Part shown: positions 49,432 through 51,394 of the stretch, one piece after another
How positions within the stretch are numbered: position 1 is the stretch's first letter
How the letters are laid out: the number at the start of each line of letters is the position of its first letter
NCBI GenBank assembly: GCA_903821745.1
Contig: CAIJMI010000005.1
Span: forward strand, 199,802-263,801
Source: Candidatus Gottesmanbacteria bacterium
GTDB taxonomy: Bacteria > Patescibacteriota > Microgenomatia > UBA10105 > UBA927
Direction of reading: 5' to 3'
DNA: 64,000 nucleotides
Translations under genes and position numbers: made by a program
Notes under the pieces: model-generated
Seen by the model: only the letters and a program-made list of their open reading frames with translations
What the model was told of the DNA's origin: nothing
Database searches by the model: none

Positions 49432-49465
49432 CACAAAAAATCCCGCGTGCAAAGCGGGATAAGAA
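49432..49465 (-). terminator. Intrinsic terminator downstream of the 16S rRNA
   Basis: The minus strand reads ATCCCGC-TTTGCAC-GCGGGAT-TTTTTG: a 7-bp GC-rich stem, 7-nt loop and U-tract, about 195 nt downstream of the 16S 3' end. Confidence 0.7.
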
Positions 49466-49658
49466 ACGAAAACAGTAAATACTTGATGCACTAGACGGTG
49501 ACAGGAACTTAGGGTTTTTGAGAGAACTATTCTGCTCGAGAATAGTTTATATATACGCACTCTCTCAAGAGATGCGTGTCAAAATCTAACGACACTCTTC
49601 ATATAGTGGAATGATTGCTCATTCATGTATGCTTTGTTGTCTTCGATTTTTTAATTAG

Positions 49659-51143
49659 AAAGGAGGTGATCCATCCCCAGCTTCGGCTAGGGATACCTTG
49701 TTACGACTTAGTCCCCATCGCTGAATTCGGCTTAGCTCCCTGCATTAAAGAAGGGCTCTTCGGCCGCCTCCAACTTTGTTGGCTTGACGGGCGGTGTGTA
49801 CAAGACCCGAGAACGTATTCACCGCGGCCTTCTGATCCGCGATTACTATCGATTCCGACTTCATGAGGTCGGGTTGCAGACCTCAATCTGAACTGAGGCG
49901 AAATTTACTGGGGATTTGCTTGCCGTTACCGGCTTGCATCCCATTGTTATTCGCCATTGTAGGGTGTGTGTAACCCAAGTTATAAGCGCCGTGCTGACTT
50001 GACGTCGTCCGTTCCTTCCTCCCTGGAAAATACCAGGGCAGTCTCCGATGACACTTGTAACATCGGATACGGGTTGCGCTCGTTCTCCAACTTAATGGAA
50101 CACCCCACGGCACGAGCTGACGACAGCCATGCAGCAGCTGTGCTACCATCCTTGCGGATAGCCCACTATTTCTAGCGGGTTAAAACGGTAGCATGTCAAA
50201 ACTTGGTAAGGTTTTTCGCTTTGTCTCGAATTGAACCACACGCTCCACCGATTGTGCGGGTCCCCGTCAATTCCTTTGAGTTTTAATCTTGCGATCGTAC
50301 TCCCCAGGCGGCCTGCTTAACGCGTTAGCTTACGTCGCTCCAAAAATTCGGAGTAACTAGCAGGCATGCGTTTAGGGCTAGAAATACGCAGGTCTCTAAT
50401 CTGCTTCTCTCCTCTAGCTTTCGTGTCTCAGTGTCAGGAATGACCCAGAAAGGTGCCTTCGCCTTTGGTGTTCCTCATGATCTCAACGCATTTCACTGCT
50501 CCACCATGAGTTCCCCTTTCCTCTATCACCCTCGAGTATATTCATCTCGCACCCAACGCCGAGGTTAAGCCTCGGGCTTTCAAGTGCGATGCAATATACC
50601 ACCTACACGACTCTTTACGCCCAGTGAATCCGGATAACGCTTGCACCCTACGTATTACCGCGACTGCTGGCACGTAGTTTGTAGGTGCTTATTCTTATAG
50701 CCTCGACGGCTATATAAAAGAGGTTTACATCCCGAAAGACTTCATCCCTCACGCGGCGTCGCTCGGTCAGGCTTTCGCCCATTGCCGAATATTCCCAGTT
50801 GCTGCCACCCGTAGGTGTATGGCCCGTGTCTCAGTGCCATTGTGGGGGGTCGTGCTCTCACACCCCCTACCCGTCGTAGCCTTGGTAGGCCGTTACCCTA
50901 CCAACAAGCTGATGGGAACAGGGCCGCTCTAGAACCGTCTTGCGACTTTAATCTTGCGATCACATACCGTATTACCCCGTCTTTCGACGAGCTATCCGAT
51001 AGTTCAAGGTACGTTCCCTGCTTATACTCACCCGTCCGCCACTAATCAACAATCTGTCTTGCGACATCTCATATCTTCGTCCGACTTGCATGCTTAAGGC
51101 ACGCCGCCAGCGTTCATCCTGAGCCAGGATCAAACTCTCAAAA
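49659..51143 (-). rRNA. rrs: 16S ribosomal RNA (complete, about 1485 nt), unlinked to 23S/5S
   Basis: 5' end AGAGTTTGATCCTGGCTCAGGATGAACGCTGG is the reverse complement of 51107-51138. 3' end GTCGTAACAAGGTA...GGATCACCTCCTTTCT is the reverse complement of 49657-49700. Internal landmarks: GTGCCAGCAGTCGCGGTAATAC, AAACTCAAAGGAATTGACGGGGACCCGCACAA, TGTACACACCGCCCGTCA. Confidence 0.95.
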
Positions 51144-51228
51144 AAATTTCCTATCACCGTTTAATTCACCAAGATATTTACTGTACTGACTATACTGCTT
51201 GCAAATATGTTAACGAGCAAAAAGAGAG

Positions 51229-51254
51229 AAAAAAAGCCCCGCCTTGTGCGGGGT
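51229..51254 (-). terminator. Intrinsic terminator-like hairpin about 90 nt upstream of the 16S 5' end (insulator or leader structure)
   Basis: The minus strand reads CCCCGC-ACAAG-GCGGGG followed by CTTTTTTT. Confidence 0.5.
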
Positions 51255-51394
51255 TCATACCCAAAAACACGAAGCGAATTGGCTTACTTTCTCATTGCAA
51301 ATGTCAATTATACGGGAAGGGGTAATCTGCGTCAATCCCCAATGTATTTATGGCTAAATTTACAAACGGAAGCATATACGATACACTAAATACT

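Follow-up and report, generated by a model that had tools for sequence, protein, structure and literature searches.

The stretch analysed here is a 64,000-nt segment of a Candidatus Gottesmanbacteria genome (assembly GCA_903821745.1, contig CAIJMI010000005.1; hereafter the window), which carries on its minus strand a 16S rRNA gene without a 23S gene nearby. We conclude that this 16S locus is very probably a monocistronic operon of a Microgenomates-type bacterium of the candidate phyla radiation (CPR), built like the other 16S units of its clade. The orphan state of the gene is real and is the known norm of its group; what had seemed an essential gene in an odd place is thus ordinary for the phylum, and insertions on either side of a conserved anchor account for its position. 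What is new is a clade-specific leader module, in which the promoter is followed, ~50 nt further on, by a terminator-like hairpin that seems able to adopt two folds, and then by boxA.

The organization that we propose, all of it on the minus strand, is the following. Transcription would most likely start at a near-consensus sigma-70 promoter (51335-51307) and proceed through a leader of ~155 nt. Within the leader, a conserved 5' segment comes first; it is followed by a G+C-rich hairpin with its U-run (51253-51229), then by a boxA-like element (51219-51208), and last by the 5' strand of a long helix (51184-51148). Past the 16S gene, a trailer of ~150 nt would lead to the 3' strand of the same helix (49507-49472), and ~10 nt further on an intrinsic terminator (49460-49434) would end the transcript. 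Once transcribed, the leader hairpin would form either a local terminator-like stem or a longer 'zipped' fold with upstream leader sequence. Our best guess, which is also the least certain step of the scheme, is that it serves as a checkpoint for pausing or attenuation and, where the upstream gene is on the same strand, also stops read-through. The 16S gene itself would have kept its ancestral chromosomal position, with glycan and lipid genes inserted on both sides. This provides an element-by-element anatomy, with comparative support, of a stand-alone 16S operon in an uncultured CPR clade, which should be useful for annotating CPR genomes and for reading metatranscriptomes.

The 16S rRNA gene is unlinked, as in its relatives

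The gene was delimited with Rfam: the segment 49659-51145 (minus strand) is a full-length match to the bacterial small-subunit (SSU) rRNA family RF00177 (model positions 1-1533, 1347 bits), as the preliminary description of this DNA had it, and contains no insertions. No large-subunit (LSU) or 5S rRNA match was obtained by Rfam anywhere in the window; the matches to 23S signature motifs that can be found in it are those expected by chance from short motifs over 64 kb. The sole tRNA genes of the window, tRNA-Cys(GCA) (39276-39348) and tRNA-Ile(GAU) (39128-39200), both lie on the 16S strand 10.3 kb downstream of the 16S gene, and the earlier claim that no 23S, 5S or tRNA gene is present within 10 kb holds. 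The window alone covers 49.6 kb downstream and 12.8 kb upstream of the gene. The preliminary description had also asked whether a co-transcribed 23S gene lies just outside it; the source contig, followed for 10 kb past each window end, consists there of close-packed protein genes and gives no rRNA or other Rfam match, which brings the span free of 23S and 5S genes to ~59 kb downstream and ~22 kb upstream. Accordingly, the locus belongs to the unlinked class as delimited by Brewer et al. (ISME J 2020, 10.1101/705046), i.e. there is no 23S gene within the 1500 bp that follow the 16S 3' end.

To see how widespread this state is, species-representative genomes were scanned with the unusual 530-loop signature of the window 16S, and the hits were ranked by 16S identity. 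The closest relatives are CPR/Patescibacteria metagenome-assembled genomes labelled Gottesmanbacteria, Woesebacteria or Patescibacteria, whose 16S genes are 79-88% identical to that of the window; the Rfam SSU scores of the relatives are 1226-1346 bits, and Shapirobacteria lie at ~72-75% identity. A 23S gene was found in none of the 18 related loci, ~14 of which have 2-5.8 kb of sequence downstream of the 16S gene. Metagenome contigs were then scanned with a 16S signature specific to the clade, which provided 120 more loci. The 16S gene is unlinked in all 23 clade loci that have a 16S identity of at least 75.7% and at least 1.5 kb of downstream sequence, and every one of the eight linked loci shows at most 75.3% 16S identity to the window. 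Among the clade relatives (L122-L241 and L013-L120), the length of the 16S gene varies from 1452 to 4643 nt, which indicates large insertions in many of them, as known for CPR bacteria.

These results agree with published surveys, and the novelty that the preliminary description implied for an orphan 16S gene has to be given up: unlinked 16S and 23S genes are widespread and phylogenetically clustered, Patescibacteria included (Brewer et al., 10.1101/705046), and unlinked rRNA genes are present in 27 of 34 circularised CPR genomes (Lui et al., PMC8172020), so that the unlinked 16S is the norm in most CPR clades. The window resembles the class defined in these surveys both by the lack of a 23S gene near its 16S gene and by the clade-wide occurrence of the trait, as in the published clustering. 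Unlike the present analysis of a single clade, the surveys sort genes by distance alone and do not cover promoter, leader, processing helix or terminators.

The 530 loop used as a signature (~50655-50700, minus strand) reads CAGCAGTCGCGG in the window 16S, with a C to U change that is a mismatch to primer 515F, and the strand located ~20 nt upstream reads CACCTACAAACTAC, not CACCGGCTAACTAC. By eye, the loop change looks compensated in the 505-507/524-526 pseudoknot. Phycisphaerae, mycoplasmas, Shapirobacteria and others also have this C to U change.

One of the related loci, L082, bears the GenBank label 'uncultured Gammaproteobacteria', which is clearly wrong since it belongs to a CPR genome. 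Its 16S gene is 99.0% identical to that of the window (L082 1-8000 compared with window 49695-60868), whereas the neighbouring orthologous proteins are 33-80% identical (carbamoyltransferase 79.6%, SpoU 74%, PAP2 64%): rRNA and protein divergence look discordant in this pair.

A conserved promoter upstream of the leader hairpin

In a promoter scan of the 47-54 kb region, the top match was TTGACG-17-TATAAT, with the -35 box at 51335-51330, a 17-nt spacer and the -10 box at 51312-51307 (minus strand; 11 of 12 positions identical to the consensus), which places the predicted transcription start at ~51298-51302. Each of the 11 close relatives for which upstream sequence is available has the pattern TTGACN-17/18-TATAAT (or TATAGT or TATATT as the -10 box) at the equivalent position. 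Searched for as a strict pattern, the promoter was recovered in 73 of 117 clade leaders, and in 63 of 116 clade loci it precedes the leader hairpin by a median of 50 nt. The comparison with L082 gives the footprint of such an element: sequence similarity disappears upstream of the unit and returns precisely at the -35 box, both hexamers are conserved while the spacer has diverged, and the -10 box and the entire leader are near-identical. TTGACG-17-TATAAT is therefore most likely the 16S promoter, and the leader predicted from it is ~155 nt long.

The preliminary description had placed the promoter downstream of the hairpin, at TTGCAA-18-TAAATA, which would give a leader of only 40-50 nt. This string is indeed present (51204-51175, minus strand), but it matches the consensus at 7 of 12 positions, below the threshold of the scan, and has no conserved counterpart in the relatives. 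Moreover, TAAATA (51180-51175) sits within the leader-trailer helix described below, and TTGCAA is a remnant of the conserved helix/boxA-like element TTTGACAA. Both the proposed promoter and the short leader were thus abandoned in favour of the promoter that the relatives conserve upstream of the hairpin. Another string downstream of the hairpin, the 'TTGACA' contained in CTTTGACAA, was rejected as well: it has no acceptable -10 box and reads TTAACA in many relatives.

On the opposite strand, a 65-aa open reading frame (ORF; ~51350-51547, plus strand) heads a divergent carbamoyltransferase operon and begins ~15 nt from the -35 box of the 16S promoter, which means that the two promoters must be back to back. 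This ORF is conserved in L082 and has a weak DUF5989 match in the gene calls of locus L243.

Leader-trailer helix, boxA-like element and terminator

Co-folding of the leader and the trailer yields 34 intermolecular pairs between the 5' strand (51184-51148) and the 3' strand (49507-49472, ~150 nt past the 16S 3' end) of the leader-trailer helix. The near-contiguous helix score of this pairing is 63, compared to a maximum of 45 for 300 shuffles and of 47 for 292 genomic controls. In an alignment of nine sequences, both sides have changed in 17 of 29 pairs, and 84.7% of the helix cells are paired versus 30-48% in slid registers, values that none of 500 shuffles reaches. An equivalent helix beats all its own shuffles in 32 of 35 non-redundant relatives, the helices of the relatives being built around a common core, GGTGATAGGAA, that pairs with TTCCTRTCACC. 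The predicted pairing is thus strongly supported by covariation. E. coli requires a leader-trailer helix longer than 17 bp (PMC10250234); by analogy, the helix described here would bracket the pre-16S RNA for folding and for RNase III-type processing. A further pairing, h0-like, between the mature 16S 5' end and the trailer motif CTCTCAAA can be drawn in the window and in L120; it is inconsistent elsewhere and we do not claim it.

The boxA-like element, TGCTCGTTAACA (51219-51208, minus strand), differs at one of 12 positions from the E. coli rrn boxA, TGCTCTTTAACAA. A match to GCTCTTTAACAA with at most two mismatches is present in 79 of 117 clade leaders, where ~2 would be expected by chance, and in several relatives the distal portion of the helix 5' strand consists of the boxA-like sequence itself. 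By analogy with its E. coli counterpart, it may recruit Nus factors.

Downstream of the helix, the predicted end of the 16S transcript is the intrinsic terminator ATCCCGC-TTTGCAC-GCGGGAT followed by TTTTTTG (minus strand), in which a hairpin with a 7-bp stem and a 7-nt loop (49460-49440) precedes a T6 run (49439-49434). The hairpin lies ~199 nt past the 16S 3' end, in keeping with the ~195 nt given earlier for a textbook terminator, and a terminator is found behind the trailer strand in nine of 11 close relatives, mostly ending TTTTTTGTGG. Terminator-like matches in the 7-kb region are as numerous as expected from shuffles (6 found, 5.4 expected); consequently, neither this hairpin nor that of the leader is significant on its own, and the reality of both is drawn from their conservation among relatives. 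With these elements in place, the view of the 16S locus as a self-contained, unlinked transcription unit closed by an intrinsic terminator is upheld.

The unit can be compared with the E. coli rrn leader (PMC10250234), with which it shares the order promoter, hairpin, boxA-like element and 5' strand of a long helix that pairs past the 16S gene; its helix, with 34 bp and covariation, is of the same kind as the Enterobacteriaceae helix of 25-40 bp. The differences are as follows. In E. coli, boxC lies in the helix, whereas in most relatives studied here the boxA-like sequence is the distal part of the helix. The hairpin located at the position of boxB has a conserved U-run and a predicted competing fold in this clade, and the E. 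coli boxB has neither. Unlike in E. coli, the helix 5' strand directly adjoins the mature 5' end of the 16S, the 3' strand being located ~150 nt past the 3' end. Finally, the E. coli transcript runs on to a tRNA and the 23S rRNA, while the transcript considered here would end at the predicted terminator.

The leader hairpin as a possible two-state element

The leader hairpin, CCCCGC-ACAAG-GCGGGG followed by C and U7 (hairpin 51253-51237, U-run 51235-51229, minus strand), is terminator-like and occupies a boxB-like position 92 nt ahead of the 16S start, close to the ~90 nt of the preliminary description. A G+C-rich hairpin with a U-run is present in 88 of 117 clade leaders; these hairpins represent 58 distinct stems, in which the pairing has been kept through two-sided changes. 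By contrast, of 83 unrelated 16S leaders that served as an outgroup under identical rules, 14 had the hairpin and 3 the promoter-hairpin module. Its position downstream of the conserved promoter makes the hairpin an element of the leader and not a simple insulator. The orientation of the upstream neighbour, determined in 62 relatives, leads to the same distinction: the neighbour is on the same strand in 39 and divergent in 21, as in the window, and the hairpin is present in both situations. The preliminary description had left the choice between an insulating terminator and a leader structure; the latter stands, whereas insulation does not as the main role.

The 5' segment of the leader (51293-51269, minus strand), composed of GAGAAAG (51293-51287), AAGCC and TTCGCTTCGT (51278-51269), can pair with the loop, the 3' arm and the U-run of the hairpin, as in the minimum free energy fold of the leader RNA. 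Whole-leader folds mostly swap the local hairpin for a long rod in which a segment located 12-22 nt upstream pairs with the hairpin loop and 3' arm, and the purine-rich 5' segment pairs with the U-run. The position of the complementary segment, 12-22 nt upstream of the hairpin, is conserved. RNAalifold also picks the alternative fold, though the hairpins are out of register in the MAFFT alignment of the leaders, which makes this consensus unreliable. We therefore used alignment-free tests in its place, in which the complementarity of a segment to its own hairpin is compared to that with foreign ones. Complementarity was 16.4 with the own hairpin versus 11.2 with a hairpin of a different type, the own value being higher in 52 of 54 unique leaders; compared with foreign segments, the own upstream segment falls at the 92nd percentile (54 leaders). 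The median gap between the local hairpin and the alternative fold is 0.8 kcal/mol. Taken as sequence-based predictions, these features hint at a two-state element. The leader has no counterpart among the Rfam families, and permissive E-values over the leader and the trailer give chance-level matches.

As to what such an element might do, we tentatively consider that the hairpin and its U-run form a zipper-like attenuator which sets, ahead of boxA, the fraction of polymerases that reach the 16S gene, and which also shields the unit from upstream read-through; we hold this composite role to be possible rather than probable. A checkpoint for pausing or attenuation seems to us the likeliest role, and insulation is likely as a secondary one wherever the upstream gene is on the same strand. 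In any case, a terminator-like leader hairpin with two predicted folds placed between promoter and boxA has no described counterpart in rRNA operons, and it is clade-specific. Kingston and Chamberlin are said to have described, in 1981, pausing and attenuation in the E. coli rrnB leader. That system reportedly shares the idea of a post-initiation gating of rRNA output within the leader; unlike the hairpin described here, its site is reportedly not a conserved canonical hairpin and U-run terminator upstream of boxA. A closer parallel in terms of folding is the zipper-type attenuator of pLS20 (PMC13401043), which likewise has an extendable apical stem and two mutually exclusive folds and is located just before a processive-antitermination signal. 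In pLS20, however, the upstream strand takes the 5' arm and the loop of the terminator, thereby freeing the 3' arm, whereas here it would take the loop, the 3' arm and the U-run. Furthermore, the leader segment involved here is ~70 nt, much shorter than in pLS20, and the downstream gene is an rRNA gene.

Several points weigh against the scheme as a whole or against its attenuation step. The promoter, the processing sites and termination are all predictions. RNAduplex energy fails to separate the leader-trailer helix from shuffles (z = -1.8), and the near-contiguous helix score took its place as the test. The gene rnc is absent from the window and from the 20 kb of extensions, and nusB, nusE and rho are absent from the window. 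As regards the leader, no more than 34 of the 54 leaders score above their own shuffles (p <= 0.05), and the own-versus-foreign complementarity statistics ignore phylogeny. The alternative fold leaves the 3' arm of the hairpin helical beside the U-run, so that it is not obviously an anti-terminator, and a terminator-like hairpin located upstream of boxA is not overridable by a complex nucleated at boxA, which leaves the passage of the polymerase unexplained. Lastly, L001 and L002 are 100% identical to the window and hence are not independent assemblies.

Two other readings of the hairpin have to be weighed. The promoter and the hairpin might constitute a separate small-RNA gene of ~70 nt ending at the U-run, in which case the 16S gene would depend entirely on read-through or on a promoter that was not recognised. 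Several observations would suit a small RNA: promoter and U-run are separated by a constant distance (63-80 nt), the rod is stable (-18 to -28 kcal/mol), the start CAATGAG is conserved, and the hairpin with its U-run looks like an efficient terminator. But there is no other credible promoter between the hairpin and the 16S gene, which is essential and highly expressed, boxA and the helix strand follow directly, and, as noted above, the search of Rfam gave no matching family. We consider a separate gene unlikely; the idea also overlaps with that of an attenuator, of which short terminated leaders would be a by-product.

Still less likely, in our opinion, is that the hairpin is an insulating terminator outside the unit and that the 16S gene is transcribed from TTGCAA-18-TAAATA with a leader of 40-50 nt. 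Apart from the existence of this string, the observation that speaks for insulation is that the hairpin can terminate a same-strand upstream gene: in the 39 relatives of 62 that have one, the gene ends a median of 102 nt upstream of the hairpin, and in L026 the stop codon of PAP2 is inside the -10 box. However, in addition to the poor match discussed above, the -10 box of this candidate would lie in a covarying helix, and the resulting transcript would be deprived of boxA and of most of the helix 5' strand. The relatives have no equivalent promoter downstream of the hairpin and all have TTGACN-17/18-TATAAT upstream of it. The persistence of the hairpin next to divergent neighbours, the window included, is a further argument against this reading and for a hairpin that belongs to the leader.

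If attenuation does take place in the leader, rRNA synthesis would be controlled after initiation in this CPR clade, whereas this step is normally controlled at initiation. It would provide tiny genomes, with their few regulators, with a simple and testable control of ribosome synthesis.

The 16S gene occupies an ancestral site between two variable slots

The 16S gene is embedded in a glycan block, as first described: the 39.4-60.3 kb region has a GC content of 0.32-0.39 versus 0.40-0.45 elsewhere and contains glycan and lipid genes, while the rest of the window consists of core metabolism and information processing genes. Upstream of the 16S gene, a backbone made of PAP2 (60338-60907), topA (61169-63193) and dprA (from 63263) is on the 16S strand. 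The upstream variable genes (51350-60334) are those for DUF5989, the carbamoyltransferase, a 391-aa protein, a 557-aa membrane protein, two GDSL proteins and a B12 radical SAM protein, and this span also contains a backbone gene, SpoU (58330-58863, minus strand). The downstream variable slot (39432-49371) comprises eight genes, for GT2, a 369-aa protein, PMT_2, a SPASM radical SAM protein, a B12 radical SAM protein, GDSL, a 442-aa protein and a 565-aa membrane protein.

The same backbone is found in relatives that are devoid of these genes. In L029, the order is DprA-TopA-SpoU-PAP2-16S, on one strand and with no extra genes, and PAP2 is directly upstream of the 16S gene in L097 and L026 too; L082 lacks the 557-aa gene and the radical SAM gene. 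On the other side, the 16S gene of 13 of 23 clade loci is followed on its own strand by tRNA-Cys and then tRNA-Ile, 231-2664 nt away, compared to 10309 nt in the window. The slot between the 16S gene and tRNA-Cys is empty in L097 and contains one gene, encoding a large membrane protein, in L013 and L086. Because the backbone neighbours are kept in relatives without the glycan genes, the 16S gene is the ancestral anchor and the accessory genes have been inserted: the ancestral backbone is dprA-topA-PAP2/SpoU, 16S, tRNA-Cys, tRNA-Ile, into which the glycan and lipid genes were inserted at two slots in a lineage-specific manner. The location that had been called odd is thus the ancestral one, between dprA-topA-SpoU/PAP2 and tRNA-Cys/tRNA-Ile.

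Conversely, the 16S gene could have arrived with the glycan genes as cargo of a mobile or accessory island, as might be thought from the low GC content of the 39.4-60.3 kb region, from the variability of its gene content among close relatives and from the contrast, in L082, between a 16S gene 99% identical and neighbouring proteins 33-80% identical to those of the window. We regard this as highly improbable: the same backbone neighbours are present in L029 and L097, which lack the glycan genes, no integrase, transposase or repeat was noticed beside the 16S gene, and its leader and trailer elements are typical of the clade.

Large multi-pass membrane proteins recur in the slot that separates the 16S terminator from tRNA-Cys; they are of the YfhO type in L086 and L120 and unassigned (563-565 aa) in L013 and the window, and have no detectable homology to each other. 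The slot looks like a preferred landing site for envelope-glycan genes beside tRNA genes, and the slot on the other side of the 16S gene gives the same impression. Landing sites next to the 16S gene would matter for surface variation in episymbiont-like bacteria.

The two membrane proteins encoded on either side of the 16S gene, of 565 aa (47674-49371) and 557 aa (54629-56302), are paralogues (28% identity, E 3.5e-42). Neither has a Pfam match at E 0.1, an NCBIfam match or a PDB sequence match. Comparison by hhalign to the PMT_2 protein of the window gave E 0.0086 with a probability of only 4.7%, and the AlphaFold2 model was unusable (predicted local distance difference test, pLDDT, 38). Of the earlier statement that the 16S gene is flanked by paralogous GT-C genes, the presence of large membrane paralogues on both sides is retained, the GT-C label is unconfirmed, and the immediate upstream neighbour is the divergent carbamoyltransferase operon.

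The window also encodes three radical SAM proteins (within 42760-45296 and 58931-60334), one of the SPASM type and two that bind B12, the latter two being distant paralogues (21% identity, E 1e-21). The trio sits with three GDSL-family paralogues and the carbamoyltransferase, a set that suggests an unusual glycan or lipid tailoring pathway.

Support for the assembly

The chromosomal context of the 16S gene is also supported by other assemblies. The carbamoyltransferase-to-16S junction is the same in L082, a different species, with 84.5% nucleotide identity across it, and a 284-kb contig of another sample (ERZ1426840), whose gene calls differ slightly, has its genes in the same order and shows the 2.36-kb gap as well. 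The mis-assembly that the preliminary description had named as grounds for refutation is thus contradicted at the upstream junction by L082 and for the gene order by an independent contig. An artefactual joining of a foreign 16S gene into the glycan block is barely conceivable: rRNA genes do often break or mis-join short-read assemblies, and ERZ18644181 breaks inside this 16S, but the junction and the order with its gap recur as just described, the PAP2/SpoU and tRNA-Cys/Ile anchors accompany the 16S gene in many relatives, and the leader and the trailer pair across the gene.

In ERZ18644181, the breaks inside the 16S gene come from both sides (L002 and L243, i.e. scaffolds 158 and 122). They may reflect strain or rRNA micro-heterogeneity in that sample, and the 16S gene appears to be single-copy in the other assemblies.

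Other features of the window

Two observations concern the opposite end of the window. At 457-1159 (minus strand), a Fic/DOC protein of 143 aa is encoded directly after an 89-aa HTH_17 protein, a toxin-antitoxin-like arrangement located among core genes. At 2217-2732 (plus strand), a response-regulator ORF comprises only the last 61 positions of the receiver domain together with a full Trans_reg_C domain; either this ORF is N-terminally truncated or its start has been mis-called.

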